Assembly: GCA_046757445.1 (NCBI GenBank) | Contig: JBHHYG010000001.1 | Location: forward strand, 1 to 46,869 | Length of the DNA stretch: 46,869 nt | Source of the DNA: Acidobacteriota bacterium | GTDB lineage: Bacteria; Acidobacteriota; UBA890 | Direction: 5' to 3' | Part shown: positions 25,113-46,869 of the stretch, piece by piece | Layout of the letters: each line of letters opens with the position of its first letter | Numbering within the stretch: position 1 is the first letter of the stretch | Program-made: the position numbers and the translations under genes | The notes under the pieces: model-generated | Database searches by the model: none | Told to the model about the DNA's origin: nothing | What the model saw: only the letters and a program-made list of their open reading frames with translations

Positions 25113-25257
25113 ACGACAGCGGAAAGCTATGAGAGCCGCCGCTGCGGGGAAGTCCAACTTGGGTATTCCCCAAAAGGTCGGGCGCGAGTTCAGCAAAGCC
25201 GACCCCGGCGGAAAACTGCCCCGAAGGGCGAAGAAGCACAAGGGACGGAAACGCTGA
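25096..25257 (+). CDS. Small basic protein, 53 aa, DUF3008-like (not in the ORF track)
   Basis: My translation: [53 protein letters not shown]. The stop overlaps the ATG at 25257. Confidence 0.4.
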
Positions 25258-26837
25258 TGCCTCGTATTCCGGTTCATAATATTGGCGCTGGGGGGACCAG
25301 CAAGGACGTTCCTGCACACTTGCTGCCTCCCGAACTGTGGAGCGACGCGCAGAACGTGAGGTTTCAGGACAACAAAGCCCTGAAGTTCACGGGACACTCT
25401 CTCGTGTTCGATCCCCCCAGCGTCGCGCCCAATTGGGCGAAGGGCGTCGCGACAGCTACGGACTACTTCATCCTCTACACAGGTCTGGCGAGTATTTTTA
25501 CTGTGGTCGGAGCTACGCACTCCGATATTACTCGTATAAGCGGGCCTTACACTGGTACGATCGCAGATGATTGGAACGGCGATATTCTCGGTGGTATTCC
25601 AGTTATCACCAACGGCGTCGATTTGCCTCAAGCCTGGAACCCCGTGGCTGCCGCGACGAAGCTCGTGGATTTGGTGAATTGGCCCGCTGCGGACCGGATG
25701 CGCTATATACGATCCTTCAAGTCGTTCCTCGTGGCGCTCTATGTCACTAAGGGGGGTACGGTCTCTCCCCACATGGTGAAGTGGAGTCACCCTGCAGATC
25801 CTGGCGCGTTGCCTTCGAGTTGGGACCAGACCGACGCGACGAAGGATGCTGGAGAGAAGGAATTGGACGATACTCAGGCGGGAGTGATACAAGACGCTGA
25901 ACGGCTCCGAGATATCCTCGTGATCTACAAGGATAATGCCACCTGGGGGATGCAGCATGTCGGCGGTCGGTTCATTTTCAGGTTTTTCCATATCTTCACT
26001 GAGACGGGAATCCTCGCACACAGGTGCGTGGCGCCGCTGCGTAATAATGAGCAGCACTTCGTCGCCACCGGGGATGATCTCATAGTCCATAACGGGCAGA
26101 GCGCGCAGAGCGTCATCGACAAGAAGTGGAAGCGTTTCCTCGCGAATAATCTCGACACTACAAACTTCGGTAGGAGTTTCGTAGTGAAGAACCCTCTCGC
26201 AGAGGAGATGTGGTTTTGCTTTCCTGAAACGGGATCGGTCTTGCCGACGCTCGCCCTGGTTTGGAACCGGAGAGACAATACTATCGGCGTGCGGCAGCTG
26301 CAGAGTTTCGACTTTATCGCGAGCGCGGTGGTCGATGTGCCGGGAACGGACCAGTCCTGGGACGCGGACACGGCGAGTTGGGATAGCGACACAACTCAGT
26401 GGGGATCAAGGGAGTTCAACCCACAGTCCATTGGGCTTCTCGCCTGCGATGCGACGAACACGAAACTCTTTAAGCTTGACGACACGAATCAGTTCAATGG
26501 CGCGGCCATGACAGCCTTCCTCGAGCGGGAAGGCTTAGCGCTCATCGGCGTCGATCGGCAGGGCAATCCGAAGTCCGATGTGTCGAGGAGGAAGCTTCTG
26601 ACTCGCATATGGATCAAGGGTGAGGGCGACCCCTTCGAAGTTCGTGCGGGCTCGCAGGAGGAACTCGGCGGCGCTATCACCTTCCAGGCGGCTAAGACCT
26701 TTACGCCTGGAGTAGACCGCTATCTCGACTTTGTTGTGAACGGGCCGCTCCTCGCAGTTCGTTTTCAATCCTCGACTAATGTGGCTTGGCAACTCCACGG
26801 TTATGACCTCGATATCCAGGTGCTCGGAGAGATCTGA
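25257..26837 (+). CDS. Virion structural protein, 526 aa (possible tail hub or nozzle)
   Basis: Size and position in the tail/ejection block. No motif recognised. Confidence 0.6.
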   Translation: MPRIPVHNIGAGGTSKDVPAHLLPPELWSDAQNVRFQDNKALKFTGHSLVFDPPSVAPNWAKGVATATDYFILYTGLASIFTVVGATHSDITRISGPYTGTIADDWNGDILGGIPVITNGVDLPQAWNPVAAATKLVDLVNWPAADRMRYIRSFKSFLVALYVTKGGTVSPHMVKWSHPADPGALPSSWDQTDATKDAGEKELDDTQAGVIQDAERLRDILVIYKDNATWGMQHVGGRFIFRFFHIFTETGILAHRCVAPLRNNEQHFVATGDDLIVHNGQSAQSVIDKKWKRFLANNLDTTNFGRSFVVKNPLAEEMWFCFPETGSVLPTLALVWNRRDNTIGVRQLQSFDFIASAVVDVPGTDQSWDADTASWDSDTTQWGSREFNPQSIGLLACDATNTKLFKLDDTNQFNGAAMTAFLEREGLALIGVDRQGNPKSDVSRRKLLTRIWIKGEGDPFEVRAGSQEELGGAITFQAAKTFTPGVDRYLDFVVNGPLLAVRFQSSTNVAWQLHGYDLDIQVLGEI

Positions 26838-27085
26838 TGCGATACGAACCTCGCGATCCACCAGAAGGAGTTGACGATGATCTCGCATCGTATCTCAGAC
26901 AAGAGTTCGCCCAGATAGCGGAGTCGTTCTTCGGAGTGGAGGAGGTCTTGCTTGTAGAACTGAATGTGGCACCGGACAAGCCTCGCGACGGGATGGTTGT
27001 CTTGGCGGATGGCGTCAACTTTAATCCAGGAGCTGGAGCAGGTTTCTATGGAAGACGTGGCGGAGCGTGGGTCTTCTTGGGCTAG
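26837..27085 (+). CDS. Hypothetical protein, 82 aa
   Basis: TGATG coupling. Confidence 0.5.
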   Translation: MRYEPRDPPEGVDDDLASYLRQEFAQIAESFFGVEEVLLVELNVAPDKPRDGMVVLADGVNFNPGAGAGFYGRRGGAWVFLG

Positions 27086-27530
27086 TACTTCCGAGCGGGA
27101 CTGGCAGATGTTGCTAGTCACGCCCGAGCTGGTGGACGATCTCTGGCCGTTGGCGGTTCCTCTCTTGCTCGAAGGCAAGGAGCATTGGGAGGAGTTCACC
27201 AGTTTGGAGTCGCTCAAGCAGTCTGTGACGGAAGGGGGGCTATTGTTGTGGCTCGCGATAGACCGAGACGGGGTGTTCTTGGCGTTGCTTACGGAAGCTA
27301 CCGTCTACCCGGAAACTGTAAGCATGCGTCTAGTTTGGATCGGCGGATCGGGGTTGGATCGAGTGCTGGAAGTGGGATTGTCTTGCCTTGAGCTTTGGGC
27401 GTACAGACACGGTGCGAAGCGGATGGAAGTCCTCGGGCGCCCCGCGTGGATACGGATACTCCAGGGAGAGGGATATAAGCTCAAGTCCTATCTCCTTGAA
27501 AAGGACATCTCCAAGATAGGAGTGCACTGA
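27048..27530 (+). CDS. Hypothetical protein, about 160 aa, with GNAT-acetyltransferase-like C-terminal pattern
   Basis: VWIGGSGLDRVLEVGLSCLELWAYRHGAKRMEVLGRPAWIRILQGEGYK resembles GNAT motif A and B spacing. Start is uncertain: 27048, 27108, or the track start 26964. Confidence 0.45.
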   Translation: MEDVAERGSSWASTSERDWQMLLVTPELVDDLWPLAVPLLLEGKEHWEEFTSLESLKQSVTEGGLLLWLAIDRDGVFLALLTEATVYPETVSMRLVWIGGSGLDRVLEVGLSCLELWAYRHGAKRMEVLGRPAWIRILQGEGYKLKSYLLEKDISKIGVH

Positions 27531-27531
27531 T

Positions 27532-28377
27532 ATGGGTTTCGGTGGGACTGGTGGCGGGAGGAGCACGACTACTACGGTACAGGAACTTGCGCCGGAACAG
27601 CAGCAGTTGCTCAACCTCGTGATCCCGGAGGCGGAGAAGTTCATCGCAGCGCCTCCGACGCTGTTTCCAAGTTCGACGATTGTTCCGTTCAATCCCCTGC
27701 AGCAGCAGGCGCAGCAGCAGGCACTCGGCGTGGCTGGCGGACCCGCACAAGGCATCGCGGACCAAGCGGCGCTGGCGCAGAACTTCTTACTCGGGCCGGT
27801 GTTGTTCCCGGAGAGTAACCCGGCGCTCCAGGGGGCGATACAAGCCGCGACACGACCGCTAGAGCGCACGTTCACACAGCAGACCTTGCCCAATATTCGG
27901 CAGGGCGCGATCTCGGCAGGCCAATTCGGAGGCTCCCGGCAGGGAATTGCCGAAGGTCTCGCGGCACAGGGCTTCCAGCAGCAGGTCGGGGACGTATCAG
28001 CTACGCTTGCGAACCAAGCATTCCAGTCAGGCTTGGAGGCGCTCACGCGGTCGCTCATCTTTGCGCCGCAGACTGCGCAACTCGGGCTTCTTCCGTCTAG
28101 TATAACCGCTGGAGTTGGACAGCAGCAGCAAGCACAAGAACAAGCCTTCCTCAGCGAAGAGGCGCAGCGGTTCCTCGCGGAGCAGATAATCCCCTTTGCT
28201 ACCGCGCAGGACGTTGCTGCGCTCGCCTTCGGTGTTGGTGGGGGCACCAGCACGACCACCGCCCAGGGACCTGGGACGAGTACCGATCCGCTGCAGGCAA
28301 TCTTGGGCATCGGCGGTCTCGCGGCTTCCATCTTCGCACCTCCACCCTTCAACTTCTCTCTTCCCCTCTTCGGATAG
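27532..28377 (+). CDS. Gln/Gly/Ala-rich virion protein, 281 aa (internal or ejection protein candidate)
   Basis: Low-complexity composition (QQQ runs, GGT...STTT at both ends). Sits in the block preceding the giant protein. Confidence 0.6.
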   Translation: MGFGGTGGGRSTTTTVQELAPEQQQLLNLVIPEAEKFIAAPPTLFPSSTIVPFNPLQQQAQQQALGVAGGPAQGIADQAALAQNFLLGPVLFPESNPALQGAIQAATRPLERTFTQQTLPNIRQGAISAGQFGGSRQGIAEGLAAQGFQQQVGDVSATLANQAFQSGLEALTRSLIFAPQTAQLGLLPSSITAGVGQQQQAQEQAFLSEEAQRFLAEQIIPFATAQDVAALAFGVGGGTSTTTAQGPGTSTDPLQAILGIGGLAASIFAPPPFNFSLPLFG

Positions 28378-28386
28378 GAGGCAATT

Positions 28387-28629
28387 GTGCCGCCAGATAA
28401 TCCTCTCCTTCGGTTCTCGCCACAGAGCAATACGGGTGTGGGTCTGCAACAGCTTCTCGCGCCGTTGGGGCAGGGCCTCAATGTTGGCGCGTCGGCGCCT
28501 GTCGACCCTGGGCAGCAGGTCCATAACCTCATCCAAGCCATAGCGCTCGCGCGGGGGCAAGATGAGAACCCTCTTGGAGAAAACCCCTTCGGCGGGCTGC
28601 TTCCACCGAGATTTAAGAGGAGTGTGTAG
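28387..28629 (+). CDS. Hypothetical protein, 80 aa, GTG start
   Basis: GGAGG SD 6 nt upstream of the GTG. Confidence 0.45.
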   Translation: MPPDNPLLRFSPQSNTGVGLQQLLAPLGQGLNVGASAPVDPGQQVHNLIQAIALARGQDENPLGENPFGGLLPPRFKRSV

Positions 28630-28631
28630 AT

Positions 28632-29165
28632 ATGCCATCTTTTCCAGGACTGAATACGCTTAGCGCCCCGACGCTTATGGCACAACTTGCGTTGCTCGGG
28701 TTGCAGGATCCGAACAGGCTCGCCCAAGTCGCTGCGGCGACAGGGCAAGCTCCGCCCACAGGAGGCGGAGGCGCAACTGCCACGGAGGCACTTGGTACTC
28801 TGCTGCAGCCCGCGAGTTTTCCGGTGGCTCCGCCTAGAGGTGCGATCGCGCCGGAGATAGGCGCTCCGCCAGCAGCTGCGCCGATCGTGCCTTCCCCGCC
28901 TCCGCCTGCCACCTTGCCGGGAGGAACGCCGCCTATCACACCTCAGCCACAGGAGACGGGGCGGGCGGACAGTATTCTCAAGGCACTCGCGGCCTTGCAG
29001 GCTCCTGCAGCGCCGAAGCCGCCGTTCGCACCGCCGCGAGGGTTCGCGCCACCGCAGGCACGAGGCGGGCCACAACCACAGTTGCTCGCGCAAATCCTTC
29101 AGTTACTGGCGCCTGCCGGCGGCGCACAGGTTCCCTCACTCGCGCAGTTGATCGGAGGTAGATGA
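28632..29165 (+). CDS. Pro/Ala-rich protein, 177 aa
   Basis: Low-complexity PPxx stretches. Tightly packed. Confidence 0.55.
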   Translation: MPSFPGLNTLSAPTLMAQLALLGLQDPNRLAQVAAATGQAPPTGGGGATATEALGTLLQPASFPVAPPRGAIAPEIGAPPAAAPIVPSPPPPATLPGGTPPITPQPQETGRADSILKALAALQAPAAPKPPFAPPRGFAPPQARGGPQPQLLAQILQLLAPAGGAQVPSLAQLIGGR

Positions 29166-30340
29166 TGCCGCCCGTCCTTCCGCCCACGCCCCCCGCAGGA
29201 GTCGGCCTGGGCCAGCTTGTGCAGCCTTCTCCAGTCCAACCGGCAGCACCTCCGCAGACTGGAGAGGAGCAGCAGGCGCTGGAGTTCAAGTGGCGCGAGT
29301 TCCTTGGCCGCCCCGAGGTTCGCGCGGCGCTGCTGCAGTTCTCCGTCAATATCCTTCAGCCGAAGCCAGCGGGGCAGACTACCCTTGGGGCCATTGGGAC
29401 TTCGATTGGTGCTGCAGGCGGGGCGGCGGAGAGAGTACGCGCGCACGAGATTGAAGAAGAAGAGCGCCTGAGGCGCGCCGGGATCGAGGAGCGTCAGATC
29501 GCTACGGAGGAGGAGCGTACTGGGATCGCCGGCGAGAGAGTTGATGCCTTCCGAGAAAGGACTGAGGCGGAAGAGCGCGTCGCGCGCGCGAACCGACGAG
29601 CGGAAGCTGCGCGCCTCGCCGCGAAGCTTCGCATTAAGCTCAAGATTGCCGAGGATAGCGAGGATGCCCAGTTGCTGAACCGTATCATCCAAGAGGCCTC
29701 CGACCGGAACGAGGCCGCGGGGAAACTTGGAGAGGCGGTTCCCCCGCTGGACCCCGCAGCTGTTCTCAACGAGTTTGATAGGATCAAGCGGGGCATTGCG
29801 CTGCGGGAGGATCTCGAAGCCGGGAGGCCCCTCAATGTTCCCGACTCGGACGTGGCTGCACTACTTCAATCAACCGATCCGCGTGCTCAGTCGGCTTTGC
29901 GTCTAGTCCCGCCCGACCAGCTCGCTAGGGTGAGGGCGCAAGTCGAAGCGGCCACTCCGGGAGTGATCACTCAGGAGCCAACGCCTAAGCCAGAAGTTCC
30001 CGCTACTGGGAGGATAGAGCCTCCAGTTCCTGCGCCGAGAGCTGACCCGATAGCGCAAGCGATCGCGACTCTCCCACGGGTGACTGCCGATACCGCCCCG
30101 AACATCTCGGCGCAAGCCCGACAGCGGGCAGAGTTCATACTGCCGCCTACTGCCGAGGAGGTGAGCGACGCCTCGTGGTTGGAAATCCAGAATAATCCCA
30201 TAGCGCGGGCCGTAGCTGCCGAGAGGTATGGAGAAGAAGTCGTTGCCGCTGCGGTGGATAAAGCGCGAGGCCGTCCCGCCATTCGGGAGAAGGCTCGCGA
30301 AGCAATCGAGCGTCACAGACGCGAGACCGGCCAGCGATAA
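29162..30340 (+). CDS. Glu/Arg/Ala-rich, coiled-coil-like protein, 392 aa
   Basis: Central segment EEEERLRRAGIEERQIATEEERTGIAGERVDAFRERTEAEERVARANRRAEAARLAAKL. TAATG junction to the giant ORF. Confidence 0.6.
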   Translation: MMPPVLPPTPPAGVGLGQLVQPSPVQPAAPPQTGEEQQALEFKWREFLGRPEVRAALLQFSVNILQPKPAGQTTLGAIGTSIGAAGGAAERVRAHEIEEEERLRRAGIEERQIATEEERTGIAGERVDAFRERTEAEERVARANRRAEAARLAAKLRIKLKIAEDSEDAQLLNRIIQEASDRNEAAGKLGEAVPPLDPAAVLNEFDRIKRGIALREDLEAGRPLNVPDSDVAALLQSTDPRAQSALRLVPPDQLARVRAQVEAATPGVITQEPTPKPEVPATGRIEPPVPAPRADPIAQAIATLPRVTADTAPNISAQARQRAEFILPPTAEEVSDASWLEIQNNPIARAVAAERYGEEVVAAAVDKARGRPAIREKAREAIERHRRETGQR

Positions 30341-33300
30341 TGGTCGAGAACCCTCGTCTCTCACCGATCGGGCAGGCTCTCCTAGACCTCACGGAGGAGC
30401 CGGTCGAGCCGGTCCCGCTCCCGAGCCGGGTGCCCGGATTGTCGCCTATAGGACAGACTTTGCTGGACCTGCAGGGTCCGGCGCCCGCTCCCACCCTGGT
30501 CCCTGAACCTCCGGGACGCCCCTCGATCCTCGGGGAGTTTACGACCGGAGTAGCCTCAGGTACGCGGCGACTCGGAGCCGAGGCTCTCGCGGTCGGGGGC
30601 GTGACGACCGCGATCTTCGGTGCTGAAGAGACCTCACAGGAGTTGTTGGAACTGGCACAGGCGCGCGAGGAGGATATTCGAGCACGCTTTCCACGCACTG
30701 TGGAGTTTGCGGAAGCGTTCGATTCTCCCGGGAATATGGCTCGGTTTGTTGCCCGATTACTGGGTGAACAAACTCCCGTAATCGCCAGTATCATCCTCGG
30801 CGGCGGGATTGGCGGGCTTGTCGGCAGAGCAGTCGGTAAACGTGCTCTGAGCGCTGCGGCGGGCGACGCTATTGTGCAGAAGTTCGTGGCGCGTGGCGCG
30901 CTCGGAGGAGTTGTCGGCGCGACGACAGGGATTGAAACTGGTGCAACGGCGCTCGAACAGCAGGAAGCGATTGGCGGAGTCGAGCCGGGAGTCGCTCTCA
31001 CCGCCGGTATTGCCAAGGGCATCCTCGAAGCCGTCGTGCCGTTCGCGTTTGCCCGCAGACTCGGCATCCTCCCGGGGCAAGCTGACGACTTCATCAGCCG
31101 AATTGGTGCACAACTAAGTCGCGTTGGTGGGAGGCCTGCGCGCGTGGCGGCGGGCTTGACTGCTGGCGGTACGGTGGAAGCCGCGACGGAGACGCTGCAG
31201 GAGGCGGTTGATGTAGCAGCGCGGAGTTTCGTAGATGATAACTTCGACGCGCTCGGGCCGGGAGTTGGGGATAGGATTCTTGAGGCTGCGTTTTCGGGAG
31301 GAGTTGTCGGGCTCCTCCTGGGAGGTGTGGGCGGAGCCGTAGCGCCCTCGGCACCCTCCCGGCCAGAGGGGCCTCGCTTCGTCCCACCTCCACCGCCAGA
31401 GGGGCCGCCGGGGGTTATTATTCCCGAGGCACCTGGGCCGGAGCCTTTGGGGCTCCCGGCGCCGCCGTTGCGGCTGCCCTCTCCAGTTGAGCCGGAAGCG
31501 CCACCGATCGAACTGCCCGGGGAGGTGCAGGAGGGAGACTTCTCGACGGAAGTCTTCGTGTCTGGGGCCGTGAGCGGAACAGGGTTCAAATTCGCGGGGC
31601 AGACTACGCCTGGCGGCACGACAGTTACTTCCTTCACGCCGCCGAACCTGGCCCAGTTTGCCGTGGCGCATGTAGGAGTAGCGAACGTGAAGCTCCTGCA
31701 GGTAGATAAGAAGGGGCTCTCGAAGGATGCCGTATCGGCAGATCTGGCATCACTCCCTTCCGTTGGGGAGTTGACGAGAAAGAACCCGCGAGTTCGCCTC
31801 TTGAAGAGGGAGACAGCGATAGAGGCCTTGCGGCTCGCGAAGGAGGCCGTGACTCTCTCAGATAAGACGGGGGTAGAGCCCTTGGTGCAGGGGGAACTTC
31901 GCTTTCTTGACGCTCTCGACAAGGGCTTCCGCTTTACGCCGGAAGAAGGTGATGGCTTCGTCGTGATTGGGGAACTTCCGCAGACTCGTGAGATCGGGGT
32001 TGAGGAACTCGGTGCCGACCCGGAGTTCTTGACTTCCGGGAGATTCCTCGTGAAACCTCAGGCGGGAGTCCCCCTGGTCGGAGATAGCCAGGGCAGGCGG
32101 CTGTTTAACATCACTAGCCCTTCTGCCCCCTTTATTGGTCGGGAGGAAGAGTCGCTGTTCAAAGTGGATGTTTCTAAACTCCCAGCAGATCAGTTTACCA
32201 CCTCCAGTGCTCTCTCGTTCGCGTCGGCCTTCCCTGGCGGGATTATAAGGAAAGATCTCACACAGGCGAGGCTTGAGTCTATCGTTCGAGATAGTCCCAC
32301 CTTATCGTTCGCCAAGGGAACTAGGCGCGTAGATAAGGCGAAGATCGCGGGACTCATCGCCGACTCCGCGCAGTTAGACCCTGGAGGTACGCGTCTACAT
32401 GCGAGGGAACTCATCCGCTTGGGGCTCCGAAGGCGCCCCGGTGGAGCTTTTACTGGGGGGGTTTTTGTTGGGAAGGAACTTCCGCGCCGGGCGCTGTTGC
32501 GAGTCCCGGCGGAGCCCGTGTTCGGCGAGAGTCGTTCGATTGGCTTTCGTGCGCCGCCCGCCCAGGCGCTTGTAGAATTGACTGTTCCTACTCGTGCAAA
32601 GACCCTGAGGGGAAAGGCTTACGATGCCGCCTCTCACAGGCCCGGTACTACGGTCGTCTTGGTGAACGTCGAGACCGTTCCCACCCAGAAGGAAAAGACA
32701 CTTGCAACTGGAGTCGCCCGCTTCTACGATACGATGCTGAAGAGGTTCGGCCTCAATGACCAGAAACTTGTAGTATTCCTTGGCAGCCCCGGACCGACTT
32801 CCCACGGAAGTTTCAGCCTCAGCCCTACTTCAGGGGGGTTCTATGTGGGATTCGACGATAAGGTTAGCAACCTCATAACCTTGAACCCGAAACAGCTCGG
32901 TGACGTAGGTACAAGGCCCGGGTTTCTCTTTGACGGCGTGCCCCACGAGTTTGGGCACCTCATAAGCCACAGGGCGTTGCTGCAGGCTGACGCGAGCGTA
33001 CAGCGTCGGCTCCTGTCCGCTTACAATCGCTCCCTGATCAAAGCTACCGAAGGCACCTTCACGAACTTCGTCTTCGAGTTCTTTTCGCCGCTCAAGGCCG
33101 TCGCCACCGCAGAGTCCCTACAGGAAGAGGGTAGACTTCCTGCCCGCGAGGCGCTACGTGACGAGAGCAAGGACAAGGAGTATTGGTTCAACTTCGAGGA
33201 GTGGTTCGCCAATCACGTCGCCCGCTGGTTCCAGACCCAACGGGAGCCGATGGGGATACTGGAGAAGTTCTTCAACGGTATCGCGCAGAGACTCAAGACG

Positions 33301-36300
33301 ATGTTCAAAGCCTTCCACGTTTTCCAAGGGAGGAGCCTCGAGGACTTCGCTCCCGCAGTAGAGGTGCAGCGCTTCCTCGAGAGCCTCCAGAGCCGCGATC
33401 GTCTAAGGGTCTCTCCTGCGATTGGGTCGAATGAGGAAGCGAGCATACGCCAGAACTCCGAGTTTGTCGATGGTGCGGTGCCGCACCAAGCACACGGCGT
33501 CTACCAGGACCGATTGTTCAAGAAGCTGAAGATCCCACAGCGCGAGCGCGAAGAAATCCGAGCACTCAGTGACCGCTTCAACTGGTTCATGAAGGTAGGG
33601 TGGAACCTGCTGCAAGTGGCACGAGTCAATCCGGGATTTGCCCGCTTGCAGGAATACGCCGAAGTCATCGACCGCTGGTACACGACGAAGATGAAGTGGG
33701 TTTCACGCTCGGATCAGCGCGTGCGGGAATTGAAAGCCCTCGGCACACGGCAGGTCGAGGCACTCTCGAAGATGATCTTCGACGTGGACTCGATGAGTTA
33801 TCTCTCCGTGCAGGAGATTAAGGACGACACGTCGCGGCTACCGACGGAAGAGGAACTCGCCGCGATCGCCAAGAAGCACGGAGTCGAGAGCGAGGCCTTC
33901 GAAATCTTCCAGCGTATCCGGGAGGACTTTACGGAAGTCCTTGACGCTATTCAGACTGCGGCGGAAAAGGCGCTCGCGGAGCAGTTCCCGCCGGGCTCGG
34001 CAGAGCTGGAGGTGGAGATTGCCCAACTCAATGCGGATATGCGTCAGATGCGTCTGCGGCCTTATTTCCCGCACTCGCGCTTCGGCGACTTCTCCGTCAC
34101 CGTGAAGGAAGGAAGGGGCGAGGAGGTCAGGACCGTTTATATGCAGCAGTTCCCCTCGCGCAAGGCCGCGAGGAAGGCCGCACTTACCCTTCGTAGAGAG
34201 TTCCCCGAAGCCGCGGGCTTTAGCGTCGGGGTGGATAAGATCCCCAAGACCGTGCAGGTGTTCCGGGGGCTTCCACCGACGCTGCTGAAGGCGATGAAGG
34301 CGAAGTTGGGTCTCAGCGAGGAGCAGCGGGCTTGGTTCGACAGGTTGATTGTGGAGTTCTCGCCGGCGAAGAGCTTCCGCAAGCGGTTCCTGAGACGCAA
34401 GGATATTCCTGGCTTCAGTCTCAACGCGATGAGAGGCTATGCAGATTACTTCTTCCACGGCGCAGGATACATTGCTCGTGTGCAGTGGGGAGGTGACCTC
34501 GAGTCAATAATCTCCGATGCGCGGAAAGAGACTTCAGAACTGCGCTTGACAATGGGGAGAGAGGGGGTCGCGGACGTAAGTAAGCGTGAGGAGATCATCG
34601 AGTTCATGCGTGATCACCTCTCTCACATCATGGACCCGAAACCAGACTGGGCGCAGTTGCGCAGCGTGGCGTTTCAATGGCACTTGGGTTATGTACCGGT
34701 TTCTGCCGTGCTGAACTTGACGCAGGTGCCTATGGTGACGTGGCCTTACCTTGCAGCACGCTTCGGGGACGGTCGAGCCATCGGGGCGATAAGGCGCGCA
34801 ACCTTCGACTTCAAGAAGGCATTTGAGAAGGGGTCTCCAGACGCTTCGGACGCACTGTTGCGCGGACTTAACCTTGGGATGGAGCAGGGTTTTCTCGATG
34901 AGTCGTTTGCGAAGGAGCTTGCCGCGACGGCGAGTGGGAGCAACCTCGCTCGCCTCTTGCCGGGTTCGAAGCTCGAGAGGATGCTTATGCAATCCGCGCA
35001 CTGGAGCGCCTTCATGTTCCAGACCAGCGAGAAGTTCAATCGGAGTGTTACTTTCCGGGCGGCGTGGAACTTAGCACTTGAAAATCCCGGCGCCGAATAC
35101 CTCACCGAGCTTCGCGACACCAATACGCTGCAATTTCGAGAACTCGTTGGCCAAGGCTGGAGCGAACTCGAAGCTACCGCGTTCCTCGCCGGGAAGGACG
35201 CGGTGCAACGCACGCAGTTCCAATACTCGCAGCACGCCCGCCCGCGGTTCATGCGTGGCAGAGCCGGGACGGTGCTGACGTTCTTCATGTTCGTGCAGCA
35301 TATGCTCTGGTTCTCAACACATTCCCCAGGAAAAGGACGCTACTTGCTCATGATGTTCTTCATGGCGGGGTTGATGGGGCTGCCGGGGGCAGAGGATTTG
35401 GCGGGGATCGCCAAGTTTATGGGACGGTCGTTCTTCGGCGCGGACTTCGACGTAGAACGGGAGACAAGGGAGTTTGTGCTTGCGCTCGTGGATGGCGAGG
35501 ACTTGCCTCCCGATATGATCCTGCATGGGATCTCGCGAGTAGGCTTCGGTATTCCTGCCGTGATGGACATGGTAGGTGTGCCCTTCCCGATGTTCGACAT
35601 GAGCGCGAACATCGGCCTTGGACAGGTCGTTCCGGGGCTGGCGCAGATCGGCGACCAGGGAGACTTCGAGCAAAAATTCGCCCGTATCACGACTCGTGCG
35701 GCGGGCGCCGTGTTCGGAACTGGGATCAATGTGCTCCGGGCGCTCACGGACAATGAACTTCCTGTCGATGACTTCAAGCGCATGGAGCGGGCATTCCCGC
35801 GCTCGCTGAAGAATGTGATGAAGGCCTCGCGGTTCTTCCAGGAGGAGCGCGAACGAACTCGGACGGGCGCTACAGTGATCGAGTTCGATGCGAGCGACCC
35901 CGAGGACCTCGCGGAGATCGTAGCACAGGGCCTCGGGTTCACCCCGACGCGGCTGGGGCGCAAGTGGGATCGCCAGCGGGCTCAGGCGGAGGTGATCGCG
36001 TTCTGGCGGATAAGGAAAGGGATGCTCATGCGGCAGTACGATCATGCCTTCGCCGTTAGAAGTGGCGAGGGGGTGAAGGATGTTCTCGCAGATATGAAAC
36101 GCTTCAACAACACCACGCCGTTTCCCAGTATGAGGATACGCCGAAGCGACCTCGCGCGGAGCCGAAAGGCGCGTAATCGGGCGCGGAGACTGTTCGAGTT
36201 GGGACTGCCGACGGCGAGGCGCGAAATCCCGATTGCGCGAGATGTACAGCGGCTGTTCCCTGAGGTTGAAGATATTGAGGATGTCTCGAGGAAACGATAA
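30340..36300 (+). CDS. Giant virion-associated multidomain protein, 1986 aa, with HExxH zincin motif and hydrophobic C-terminal segments (ejection / internal virion protein candidate)
   Basis: Uninterrupted 5.96-kb ORF. HEFGH at 32944..32958. Gly/Ala-rich amphipathic N-terminal third. Hydrophobic stretches near 35260..35400. Confidence 0.85.
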   Translation: MVENPRLSPIGQALLDLTEEPVEPVPLPSRVPGLSPIGQTLLDLQGPAPAPTLVPEPPGRPSILGEFTTGVASGTRRLGAEALAVGGVTTAIFGAEETSQELLELAQAREEDIRARFPRTVEFAEAFDSPGNMARFVARLLGEQTPVIASIILGGGIGGLVGRAVGKRALSAAAGDAIVQKFVARGALGGVVGATTGIETGATALEQQEAIGGVEPGVALTAGIAKGILEAVVPFAFARRLGILPGQADDFISRIGAQLSRVGGRPARVAAGLTAGGTVEAATETLQEAVDVAARSFVDDNFDALGPGVGDRILEAAFSGGVVGLLLGGVGGAVAPSAPSRPEGPRFVPPPPPEGPPGVIIPEAPGPEPLGLPAPPLRLPSPVEPEAPPIELPGEVQEGDFSTEVFVSGAVSGTGFKFAGQTTPGGTTVTSFTPPNLAQFAVAHVGVANVKLLQVDKKGLSKDAVSADLASLPSVGELTRKNPRVRLLKRETAIEALRLAKEAVTLSDKTGVEPLVQGELRFLDALDKGFRFTPEEGDGFVVIGELPQTREIGVEELGADPEFLTSGRFLVKPQAGVPLVGDSQGRRLFNITSPSAPFIGREEESLFKVDVSKLPADQFTTSSALSFASAFPGGIIRKDLTQARLESIVRDSPTLSFAKGTRRVDKAKIAGLIADSAQLDPGGTRLHARELIRLGLRRRPGGAFTGGVFVGKELPRRALLRVPAEPVFGESRSIGFRAPPAQALVELTVPTRAKTLRGKAYDAASHRPGTTVVLVNVETVPTQKEKTLATGVARFYDTMLKRFGLNDQKLVVFLGSPGPTSHGSFSLSPTSGGFYVGFDDKVSNLITLNPKQLGDVGTRPGFLFDGVPHEFGHLISHRALLQADASVQRRLLSAYNRSLIKATEGTFTNFVFEFFSPLKAVATAESLQEEGRLPAREALRDESKDKEYWFNFEEWFANHVARWFQTQREPMGILEKFFNGIAQRLKTMFKAFHVFQGRSLEDFAPAVEVQRFLESLQSRDRLRVSPAIGSNEEASIRQNSEFVDGAVPHQAHGVYQDRLFKKLKIPQREREEIRALSDRFNWFMKVGWNLLQVARVNPGFARLQEYAEVIDRWYTTKMKWVSRSDQRVRELKALGTRQVEALSKMIFDVDSMSYLSVQEIKDDTSRLPTEEELAAIAKKHGVESEAFEIFQRIREDFTEVLDAIQTAAEKALAEQFPPGSAELEVEIAQLNADMRQMRLRPYFPHSRFGDFSVTVKEGRGEEVRTVYMQQFPSRKAARKAALTLRREFPEAAGFSVGVDKIPKTVQVFRGLPPTLLKAMKAKLGLSEEQRAWFDRLIVEFSPAKSFRKRFLRRKDIPGFSLNAMRGYADYFFHGAGYIARVQWGGDLESIISDARKETSELRLTMGREGVADVSKREEIIEFMRDHLSHIMDPKPDWAQLRSVAFQWHLGYVPVSAVLNLTQVPMVTWPYLAARFGDGRAIGAIRRATFDFKKAFEKGSPDASDALLRGLNLGMEQGFLDESFAKELAATASGSNLARLLPGSKLERMLMQSAHWSAFMFQTSEKFNRSVTFRAAWNLALENPGAEYLTELRDTNTLQFRELVGQGWSELEATAFLAGKDAVQRTQFQYSQHARPRFMRGRAGTVLTFFMFVQHMLWFSTHSPGKGRYLLMMFFMAGLMGLPGAEDLAGIAKFMGRSFFGADFDVERETREFVLALVDGEDLPPDMILHGISRVGFGIPAVMDMVGVPFPMFDMSANIGLGQVVPGLAQIGDQGDFEQKFARITTRAAGAVFGTGINVLRALTDNELPVDDFKRMERAFPRSLKNVMKASRFFQEERERTRTGATVIEFDASDPEDLAEIVAQGLGFTPTRLGRKWDRQRAQAEVIAFWRIRKGMLMRQYDHAFAVRSGEGVKDVLADMKRFNNTTPFPSMRIRRSDLARSRKARNRARRLFELGLPTARREIPIARDVQRLFPEVEDIEDVSRKR

Positions 36301-36725
36301 TGACCATCAGCAACGTCACCTTCCCCACTGATCTGCTCCTGCGTCGGAAGCGCTCGGATATGGCGGGTTTTAACTTCTATGTCGAGCGGAAGTGGTGGAT
36401 CTTCTACGACGAGACCCACCAGGGATTCGAGCCTACAACTCGTCGATATGACATCCCTAAAAACTTCGGCACAGACTTTTCCTCCGTTCCGGGGCTCTTC
36501 CGCAGCCTGGCCTCCAAAGTAGACTCTATCGAGGGCAGCACGGTCCACGACCACGCCTATCGGTTCAAGGTTCTCCCGCGGAGAACTGCGGATGCGCTGT
36601 TCCGCGAGATAATGATTGCCGCCGGGAAGAGCTGGTTCAAGCGCAATCTGATGTGGCTCGGCGTGCGGGCGGGGGGCTGGTGGACCTATAGAGAAGGTAG
36701 GCCCCGCCGAGTTGACGGGGCCTAG
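36300..36725 (+). CDS. DUF1353-family protein, 141 aa
   Basis: YDIPKNFGTDFSSVPGLFRS...STVHDHAY...RRTADALFREIM...GVRAGGWW matches the DUF1353 pattern (F-x-TD-x-AS-x-P, HD, AD) as I remember it. Confidence 0.6.
   Translation: MTISNVTFPTDLLLRRKRSDMAGFNFYVERKWWIFYDETHQGFEPTTRRYDIPKNFGTDFSSVPGLFRSLASKVDSIEGSTVHDHAYRFKVLPRRTADALFREIMIAAGKSWFKRNLMWLGVRAGGWWTYREGRPRRVDGA
36699..36723. terminator. Hairpin at the convergence point of the two arms (AGGCCCCG-9 nt-CGGGGCCT), with no U-run
   Basis: An 8-bp GC stem overlaps the stop codon of 36300..36725 and lies 5 nt from the stop of the convergent 36729..36878 ORF. Confidence 0.3.
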
Positions 36726-46748: not shown

Positions 46749-46826
46749 TCAGTGGTCGCCGATGGCGACGGCGAAAAGTAGCACTATGACGAGCAACATC
46801 ACCCAGCTCGGGTCGATCCCCCACAT
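46749..46826 (-). CDS. Possible 25-aa hydrophobic micro-ORF spanning the contig junction
   Basis: MWGIDPSWVMLLVIVLLFAVAIGDH. Its ATG lies in the same GAATTTTGATG junction that starts the gene at 6121. Confidence 0.25.
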   Translation of the reverse strand: MWGIDPSWVMLLVIVLLFAVAIGDH

Positions 46827-46869
46827 CAAAATTCGCTCAGCGCCGTCGGCACGACGGGGGCTTTCTTTT
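46815..46869. repeat. Second copy of the 55-bp terminal overlap
   Basis: Exact identity to 1..55. Confidence 0.9.

Follow-up and report, generated by a model that had tools for sequence, protein, structure and literature searches.

The internal virion proteins (IVPs) of phage T7, gp13 to gp16, form a four-part set in which the largest protein comes last and carries an enzyme domain, in gp16 a lytic transglycosylase. The extended T7 IVP-D family is described as one that 'variably hosts' lysozyme or cytoplasm-destined domains, and it includes the giant structural protein of phages F116 and H66 as well as the C-terminal domain of N4 gp50 (Hardies et al. 2016, PMC4819975). For Pa223, a Bruynoghevirus, mass spectrometry identified gp56, gp54 and gp53 as virion proteins; gp53 was proposed to be the inner-membrane complex (IMC), gp54 the periplasmic tunnel (PT) and gp56 the outer-membrane channel (OMC), and gp59 was built as a hexameric tail hub (10.1101/2025.06.11.659172). 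In phage polyvalent proteins, the virion RNA polymerase (vRNAP) of N4 included, the commonest domain is a metallopeptidase (MPTase) (Iyer et al. 2017, PMC5512222). Here we analyse a 46,869-nucleotide contig, JBHHYG010000001.1, from an Acidobacteriota assembly (GCA_046757445.1). This whole stretch is referred to below as the window. It carries a block of tail and internal-virion genes that ends in one encoding a 1986-amino-acid (aa) protein with an HExxH motif, hereafter the giant.

We put the probability at roughly 80% that the genes at about 26.9-36.3 kb are a podovirus ejectosome set, with tail and ejection genes related to those of Bruynogheviruses, and that the giant is a protein of the IVP-D or T7 gp16 type, belonging to the inner-membrane complex and bearing an active zincin. 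The giant gene is the last and largest downstream of the tail hub, sharing gene position and predicted job with its T7 counterpart, and its product is homologous to a recognised IVP-D member, that of F116. An initial annotation, made from the sequence alone, had already read this block as internal virion or DNA-ejection proteins with an enzymatic domain, and synteny, homology to gp56 and gp53, the F116 link of the C-terminal domain and the zincin fold all support that view. The same annotation took a metallopeptidase to be non-standard in such a role; this does not hold, given how common the MPTase is in polyvalent proteins. The five open reading frames (ORFs) it listed, of 281, 80, 177, 392 and 1986 aa, were recovered with the same positions and sizes, and the giant gene, put at about 13% of the genome, measures 12.7% of the contig.

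The block begins with the tail hub (526 aa) and a needle-like gene (82 aa), followed by genes for proteins of 188, 281, 80, 177, 392 and 1986 aa. The order 526-82-188-281-(variable)-392-giant was kept in at least 12 related metagenomic loci examined. In IMG/VR, 72 related loci came to light, and the contigs carrying them often measured about 47-48 kb; seven further related loci lay inside bacterial metagenome-assembled genomes (MAGs) or genomes. Among cultured phages, the best relative is Microcystis phage Mel-JY34, which has the same gene order and encodes homologues of the 526-, 188-, 281-, 392- and 1986-aa proteins, that of the giant being 1894 aa long; among the matches listed from 50,697 phage records, it was the only phage with a match reaching the zincin region. 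The block is also collinear with those of Bruynogheviruses (PaP3 orf13-orf19; Pa223), and all four of PaP3 orf13, orf14, orf15 and orf16 have homologues in it. That the Pa223 and PaP3 genes correspond is our inference, drawn from their order, their sizes and the portal identity of 84% given in the Pa223 preprint.

Judged from its sequence, the giant is built in five parts, namely a leader, an N-domain, a Pro-rich linker with a variable middle, a zincin and a C-terminal body, or C-body (Table 1). The N-domain is rich in Ala (17.5%) and Gly (16.7%). The initial annotation had described a Gly/Ala-rich N-terminal third; such a region is present, covering about one seventh of the protein. A profile of 46 N-domain sequences aligned with residues 71-330 of the PaP3 orf19 family over 248 columns (hhalign probability 99.1%, E 5e-19), and the single PaP3 orf19 sequence was matched at a probability of 96.3%. 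Residues 122-326 of F116 gp59 were also found (hmmsearch E 1.5e-6). Three Gly-rich hydrophobic segments begin at residues 147, 218 and 316, with 19-residue Kyte-Doolittle means of 1.61-1.79. These values exceed those of the hydrophobic segments near the C-terminus. The N-domain is the candidate membrane-inserting part of the giant, membrane propensity being judged here from hydropathy.

In the leader a peptide occurs twice, as LSPIGQALLDL (30358-30390) and as LSPIGQTLLDL (30439-30471), just as the initial annotation had it. An N-terminal 9-mer duplicated within the same protein, with at most two mismatches, was found in 14 of 49 family members, where shuffled sequences predict 0.1. The peptide itself varies between proteins, and its two copies inside one protein stay alike. 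This pattern suggests a bivalent short linear motif for some partner. Bearers of such a duplication include P0006, P0015, P0020, P0023, P0042 and P0068, and the leader of PaP3 orf19 shows a looser AAELAxx duplication. We considered a beta-clamp-binding motif and rejected it, since that motif is absent from the peptides of other family members. Beyond the N-domain, the linker (residues 336-400) is 37% Pro and the middle region that follows is shared by only 4 of 152 family representatives; residues 336-766 as a whole gave no Pfam match.

In the NCBIfam model NF032893, 'PLxRFG domain-containing protein', which has a cut-off of 100 bits, the C-body scored 317.6 (E 1.7e-94), its best stretch being residues 1241-1582. 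Its motif PYFPHSRFG lies at residues 1241-1249, of which P1241, Y1242, F1243, P1244, R1247, F1248 and G1249 were invariant (alignment A1). The C-body aligned with residues 829-1616 of F116 gp60 at a probability of 100% (hhalign E 1.7e-56), tblastn against the F116 group gave E values of about 1e-19 to 3e-20 with most of its records, and PHROG 11358, 10089 and others matched it as well. Two hydrophobic stretches, TFFMFVQHMLWF (35278-35313) and LLMMFFMAGLMGL (35344-35382), make up a hydrophobic hairpin region at residues 1647-1681. They lie where the initial annotation had placed strongly hydrophobic segments; their hydropathy is moderate, with 19-residue Kyte-Doolittle means of 1.37-1.46.

The C-body is the fixed end of a wider family. 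Among the 152 representatives, 117 carry a zincin followed by a C-body, with a median gap of 48 residues and a minimum of 34, and in these 117 the C-body always ends the protein. The N-domain was detected in 50 of them with a profile that is shallow. In viral loci, the C-body was also found with other N-terminal content.

A short pattern, F[QR]xLxxxG[MW][ST]xE[QE]A, occurs at residues 1594-1616 of the giant (35119-35187), at 320-342 of N4 gp50 and at 445-469 of JC1 gp69. In these three otherwise unrelated giant virion proteins, hhalign and hmmsearch came upon it independently of each other, with non-significant scores. PHROG 10089 matches both the giant and JC1 gp69, a 'DarB-like' virion protein of a Bcep22-like phage, and the N-domain, zincin and C-domain profiles were all negative for gp69. 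The JC1 proteomics is accordingly used as an analogy only, with no claim that gp69 carries the C-domain.

The zincin contains the sole HExxH of the giant, HEFGH (H869-H873) at 32944-32958, where 0.02 would be expected by chance from composition. A profile built from five domain sequences was searched against 1.84 billion representative proteins and retrieved 1038 at E<=1e-3, of which 462 also passed E<=1e-10. The proteins found are mostly about 1900-2300 aa long, with the domain near residue 800-1000. Residue conservation was read from 161 aligned zincin copies from 152 proteins. H869 was kept in 159 copies, E870 in 160, G872 in 156, H873 in 159, Y948 in 144 and E954 in 157, and the full pentad H-E-H-Y-E was whole in 140. 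The proteins carrying these copies are only 20-35% identical across the domain, so conservation of the pentad indicates selection on catalysis. We infer from it that the zincin is a catalytically active, zinc-dependent peptidase. The subfamily also has a signature of its own, YWxxF[DE]EWFA[ED]Q.

An AlphaFold2 model of the domain, built from a 31-sequence alignment, reached a pLDDT (predicted local distance difference test) score of 88.3 and a predicted template-modelling (pTM) score of 0.89. It replaced one from a 5-sequence alignment, with a pLDDT of 55.8 and non-significant Foldseek matches. The model has strands at 5-9, 43-48, 67-71 and 77-82 and a helix at 17-36; H869, E870 and H873 sit on the HExxH helix (95-114) and E954 on a later helix (186-200). 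This agrees with the MPTase topology of Iyer et al. 2017, in which a small sheet and an N-terminal helix are joined by an HExxH helix and a later Glu-bearing helix (PMC5512222). Thus the HExxH region that the initial annotation had called zincin-type has both the conserved pentad and a confidently modelled zincin fold.

Foldseek against the PDB placed M34 peptidases first, namely the lethal-factor catalytic domain and the Pro-Pro endopeptidases PPEP-1/Zmp1, with probabilities up to 1.0 and an E of 3e-3. Y178F mutants of PPEP-1 among these matches point to a catalytic Tyr, and the Tyr conserved in the family shortly ahead of the Glu ligand fits it. In BFVD a protein labelled 'large polyvalent protein associated domain' came top (E 2e-8, TM 0.64), followed among viral models by MuF-like, M34-annotated and PolyVal proteins. 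The matches of a sequence-profile search of the PDB were nearly all zinc proteases, and all were weak (best FtsH, E 0.004); a search of the PDB with the whole giant found nothing. Other family members gave only weak M78, SprT and M48 Pfam matches. One member, P0011, carries a phage-type polyvalent-protein domain, LPD38, which also speaks for the main reading. On the model, the zincin is an M34-like gluzincin and a divergent subfamily of the polyvalent-protein MPTase. It shares with that domain the HExxH helix, the later Glu helix, the three-stranded sheet and the N-terminal helix, has M34 (lethal-factor-type) enzymes as best structural reference and likewise sits in giant virion-associated phage proteins. 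It differs in its own signature and in its fixed site about 35-50 residues before the PLxRFG body.

Comparison with described systems places the giant amongst ejection proteins of modular build. Like Pa223 gp53 and PaP3 orf19, it is the final large gene after the hub, needle, orf15 and orf16 homologues, has the homologous N-domain and, at its start, has a Pro-rich spacer behind a short amphipathic leader. Unlike them, it has an HExxH; gp53 and orf19 are about 1056 aa, half its size, and homology to orf19 is confined to the N-domain, with no significant match to the PLxRFG body. F116 has both end modules, the N-domain in gp59 and the PLxRFG body in gp60, and with H66 shares the plan of an ejection protein with cargo between conserved ends. 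In F116, however, the two modules lie on separate genes (L087 129-11490), as Hardies et al. noted for the homologue of H66 gp60 (PMC4819975). The F116/H66 cargo is methylase-like within a protein of about 3800 aa, in which the match to our zincin profile was non-significant, whereas in the giant the cargo is a 366-aa region without assignment plus the zincin.

N4 gp50 offers a parallel of layout, with a probable membrane-active N-terminal domain, a middle cargo, an HExxH subdomain of about 250 aa (C1) and then a body of about 1000 aa, C2 being a helical subdomain without structural relative; it is ejected with two smaller ejection proteins. The giant differs in having no polymerase domain. Homology to N4 gp50 was rejected, as whole-protein and per-domain hhalign comparisons, one with a 14-sequence N4-like alignment included, were non-significant (best probability 19%, at the HExxH helix), and a homologue search for N4 gp50 returned only close N4 relatives. 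In T7, the enzyme of gp16 is a lytic transglycosylase instead of a zincin.

We propose that the head would contain a few copies of the giant, alongside the putative outer-membrane channel protein of 281 aa and the tunnel candidate of 392 aa, and that these would leave through the tail before the DNA does. The cytoplasmic membrane would then be engaged by the N-domain with its Gly-rich hydrophobic helices, possibly also by the C-terminal hairpin, and the giant would form the end of the conduit there. The zincin would most likely cut either the giant or its partners in ejection, with Pro-rich linkers as an example of a site, in maturation or after ejection. We favour cleavage of self or partners because of the fixed intramolecular position of the zincin and the argument of Iyer et al. 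A fuller version is speculative and, as a whole, rather unlikely: the family may be a self-processing ejection chassis, in which the zincin beside the PLxRFG body cuts Pro-rich linkers in the capsid or after ejection and frees the membrane-inserting N-domain and the variable cargo. In this version the duplicated peptide, its two copies co-evolving, would serve as a bivalent signal that docks on a symmetric partner, for instance the portal or the tunnel protein.

It is possible, if on the whole unlikely, that the zincin instead acts on the host, as an injected protease effector that cuts an envelope, defence or regulatory protein. The nearest solved folds belong to secreted M34 endopeptidases that cut other proteins, Iyer et al. 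also weigh action after injection (PMC5512222), and family relatives carry anti-host domains such as lysozyme or, in P0011, the phage-type polyvalent-protein domain LPD38 of Pfam. A constant site beside the C-body in all 117 representatives suits an intramolecular role better, as does the N4 counterpart C1, which is integral to the C-terminal domain, and a host target comes without a known candidate substrate.

We think it improbable that the zincin takes the place of the lytic transglycosylase and cuts peptidoglycan cross-links or murein lipoprotein during ejection. Pfam and PHROG scans found no lysozyme or transglycosylase domain in the ejection block, and Hardies et al. mention a murein endopeptidase in one IVP (PMC4819975). 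The fold, however, is that of M34 protein endopeptidases and not of the LAS, M15 or M23 peptidoglycan peptidases. A muralytic domain does occur in the family, as the N-terminal phage lysozyme domain PF18013 of P0004, where it stands alongside a zincin, so the two are not alternatives.

There is also little to commend a purely structural HExxH domain, its catalysis unused and the domain retained as part of the packaging or ejection body. Such a role would fit the analogous HExxH subdomain of N4 vRNAP, which is reported to be packaged unprocessed (PMC5512222), and it would fit P0005 (1650-1920) and P0009 (1278-1553), in which the zincin copy next to the C-body has weakened to SEDYQ and HEHYQ, respectively. 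In both proteins, however, a second, distal copy keeps H-E-H-Y-E, and degeneration was seen only where such an intact copy is present. The selection on catalysis indicated by the pentad argues the same way. Least probable by far is that the giant belongs to the tail, as a tape-measure-like or another protein, or that it is a polyvalent protein of the cytoplasm and absent from the virion: its size, its low-complexity stretches and the NCBIfam short label 'tail-700' for the C-domain model would suit this, but homology searches pointed to podovirus ejection proteins instead, with homologues in the podoviruses PaP3, F116 and Mel-JY34 and an N-domain homologue, gp53, that is a virion protein, and the structural genes scanned in the window include a podovirus tail hub and a needle-like gene and no tail-tube, sheath or tape-measure-chaperone genes.

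Several points weigh against the reading of the giant as an IVP-D protein with an active zincin. Composition is skewed in the N-domain, with an hmmsearch bias of 17.6 out of 62 bits, although its match between profiles is long and collinear. Comparing the C-terminal part of PaP3 orf19 with the C-domain gave a probability of only 4% (E 0.01), and by sequence profile the C-body has no relative in the PDB. The C-domain profile was negative against single sequences of T7 gp16 (probability 0.8%) and epsilon15 gp17 (0.2%), and against N4 gp50. Since these direct tests were negative, the link of the giant to T7 IVP-D rests on the literature, where it needed joined hidden Markov models from several groups (PMC4819975). 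Foldseek TM-scores to M34 enzymes were modest (0.38-0.43), and the window's zincin matched no Pfam family at E<=1, the polyvalent MPTase model included. The position beside the C-body may also serve a structural role, because the adjacent copies in P0005 and P0009 have lost catalytic residues.

The 526-aa protein matched PaP3 orf13 over residues 13-520 (BLASTP E 3e-85) and phrog_3287 (E 7e-102). The 82-aa protein belongs to a family of 24 ORFs in related loci, whose profile aligned with residues 1-95 of PaP3 orf14 (hhalign probability 92.7%, E 4e-7). Homologues of this ORF reach 457-880 aa in some related loci, so the needle may be truncated or split in this phage. The 188-aa protein, kept in all related loci examined, is homologous to PaP3 orf15 (jackhmmer E 7e-28); it had no Pfam match, which leaves a GNAT fold without confirmation, and a relationship to T7 gp13 or epsilon15 gp13 was rejected for want of similarity.

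The initial annotation had characterised three of the next four proteins by composition, as Q/G-rich (281 aa), P/A-rich (177 aa) and E/R coiled-coil (392 aa), and our residue counts agree with these compositions. The 281-aa protein (A 15%, Q 14%, G 12%) is the only one of the four with homology support. It matched PaP3 orf16 by BLASTP (E 7e-10), jackhmmer (1e-54) and hhalign (probability 98.6%, E 5.5e-16, 228 columns), as well as phrog_4287, 'DNA ejection protein' (E 1.8e-15), and has a C-terminal hydrophobic segment at residues 254-270 (Kyte-Doolittle 1.64). Through its homology to gp56 and orf16 it is a putative outer-membrane channel; no similarity to T7 gp14 or epsilon15 gp14 was found. 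The 80-aa protein had no family match and no homologue in related loci. Family searches with the 177-aa protein (P 20%, A 20%) were likewise without match, and a homologue was detectable in only one related locus (L014).

The 392-aa protein (A 17%, E 11%, R 11%) is a periplasmic-tunnel candidate by position only, with a 24-ORF family occupying its slot in relatives. It shows no detectable similarity to the proteins of the same position elsewhere, Pa223 gp54 and PaP3 orf18, and T7 gp15 and epsilon15 gp15/gp16 were rejected as relatives on the same ground. Its gene overlaps the start of the giant gene by 1 nucleotide. TAATG stands at both ends of the giant gene, as part of a GATAATG junction found on one side with the 392-aa gene and on the other with the 141-aa DUF1353 gene; consecutive genes around the giant are thus translationally coupled. 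G+C climbs to 0.64 across 28000-32000 from a background of about 0.58, and the rise overlaps the Pro/Ala/Gly-rich genes and the N-terminal fifth of the giant gene.

Table 1. Features of the tail and internal-virion block and parts of the giant protein (window coordinates)
Feature	Position	Strand	Basis or remark
Tail hub / nozzle protein, 526 aa, start of block	25257..26837	+	PaP3 orf13 homologue
Needle-like protein, 82 aa	26837..27085	+	Resembles N-terminal plug of Bruynoghevirus tail needle
188-aa protein, IVP-A position, start codon uncertain	26964..27530	+	PaP3 orf15 homologue
281-aa ejection protein, IVP-B-like role (putative)	27532..28377	+	PaP3 orf16 / Pa223 gp56 homologue
80-aa low-complexity protein (putative)	28387..28629	+	Open frame, tight spacing
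177-aa Pro/Ala-rich protein	28632..29165	+	Composition
392-aa E/R/A-rich protein, periplasmic-tunnel (IVP-C / Pa223 gp54) position	29162..30340	+	Position
Giant protein, 1986 aa	30340..36300	+	Last and largest gene of internal-virion block
Giant residues 1-60: leader, duplicated peptide, Pro-rich spacer	30340..30519	+	Repeat
Giant residues 61-335: Gly/Ala-rich N-domain	30520..31344	+	Common to gp53/orf19 and F116 gp59
Giant residues 336-766: Pro-rich linker (336-400) and variable middle	31345..32637	+	Composition
Giant residues 767-1027: zincin-like metallopeptidase domain	32638..33420	+	H869, E870, H873, Y948, E954
Giant residues 1061-1986: conserved C-terminal body	33520..36297	+	PLxRFG domain
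141-aa DUF1353 protein (may belong to the block)	36300..36725	+	PF07087 E 3.7e-16; phrog_1158 'tail assembly chaperone' E 6e-20

The window is probably a complete podovirus genome of 46.9 kb, because its ends overlap by 50 nucleotides. The first 50 (1-50) and the last 50 (46820-46869) each recur, and the 100-nucleotide ends do not, a repeat that suits a complete genome, circular or terminally redundant, with an overlap left by assembly. The window encodes a large terminase, a portal, a major capsid protein, an M15 endolysin and podovirus-type tail genes, and it is contig C1 of a 615-contig, 4.0-Mb MAG.

The giant is a new member of a large catalogued family, and not a new kind of system. In metagenomes this family comprises more than 1000 clusters at 50% identity. 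The analysis joins three pieces that had been described separately, namely the N-domain of Bruynoghevirus gp53, the zincin of polyvalent proteins and the PLxRFG/IVP-D body of NCBIfam, and the fixed rule of their architecture gives concrete constructs for probing the conserved protease. The way in which short-tailed phages get across the Gram-negative envelope, and what they deliver along with their DNA, is decided by giant ejection proteins. If the family were indeed a self-processing chassis, podoviruses would follow a general rule in packaging their swappable cargo and in setting it free.

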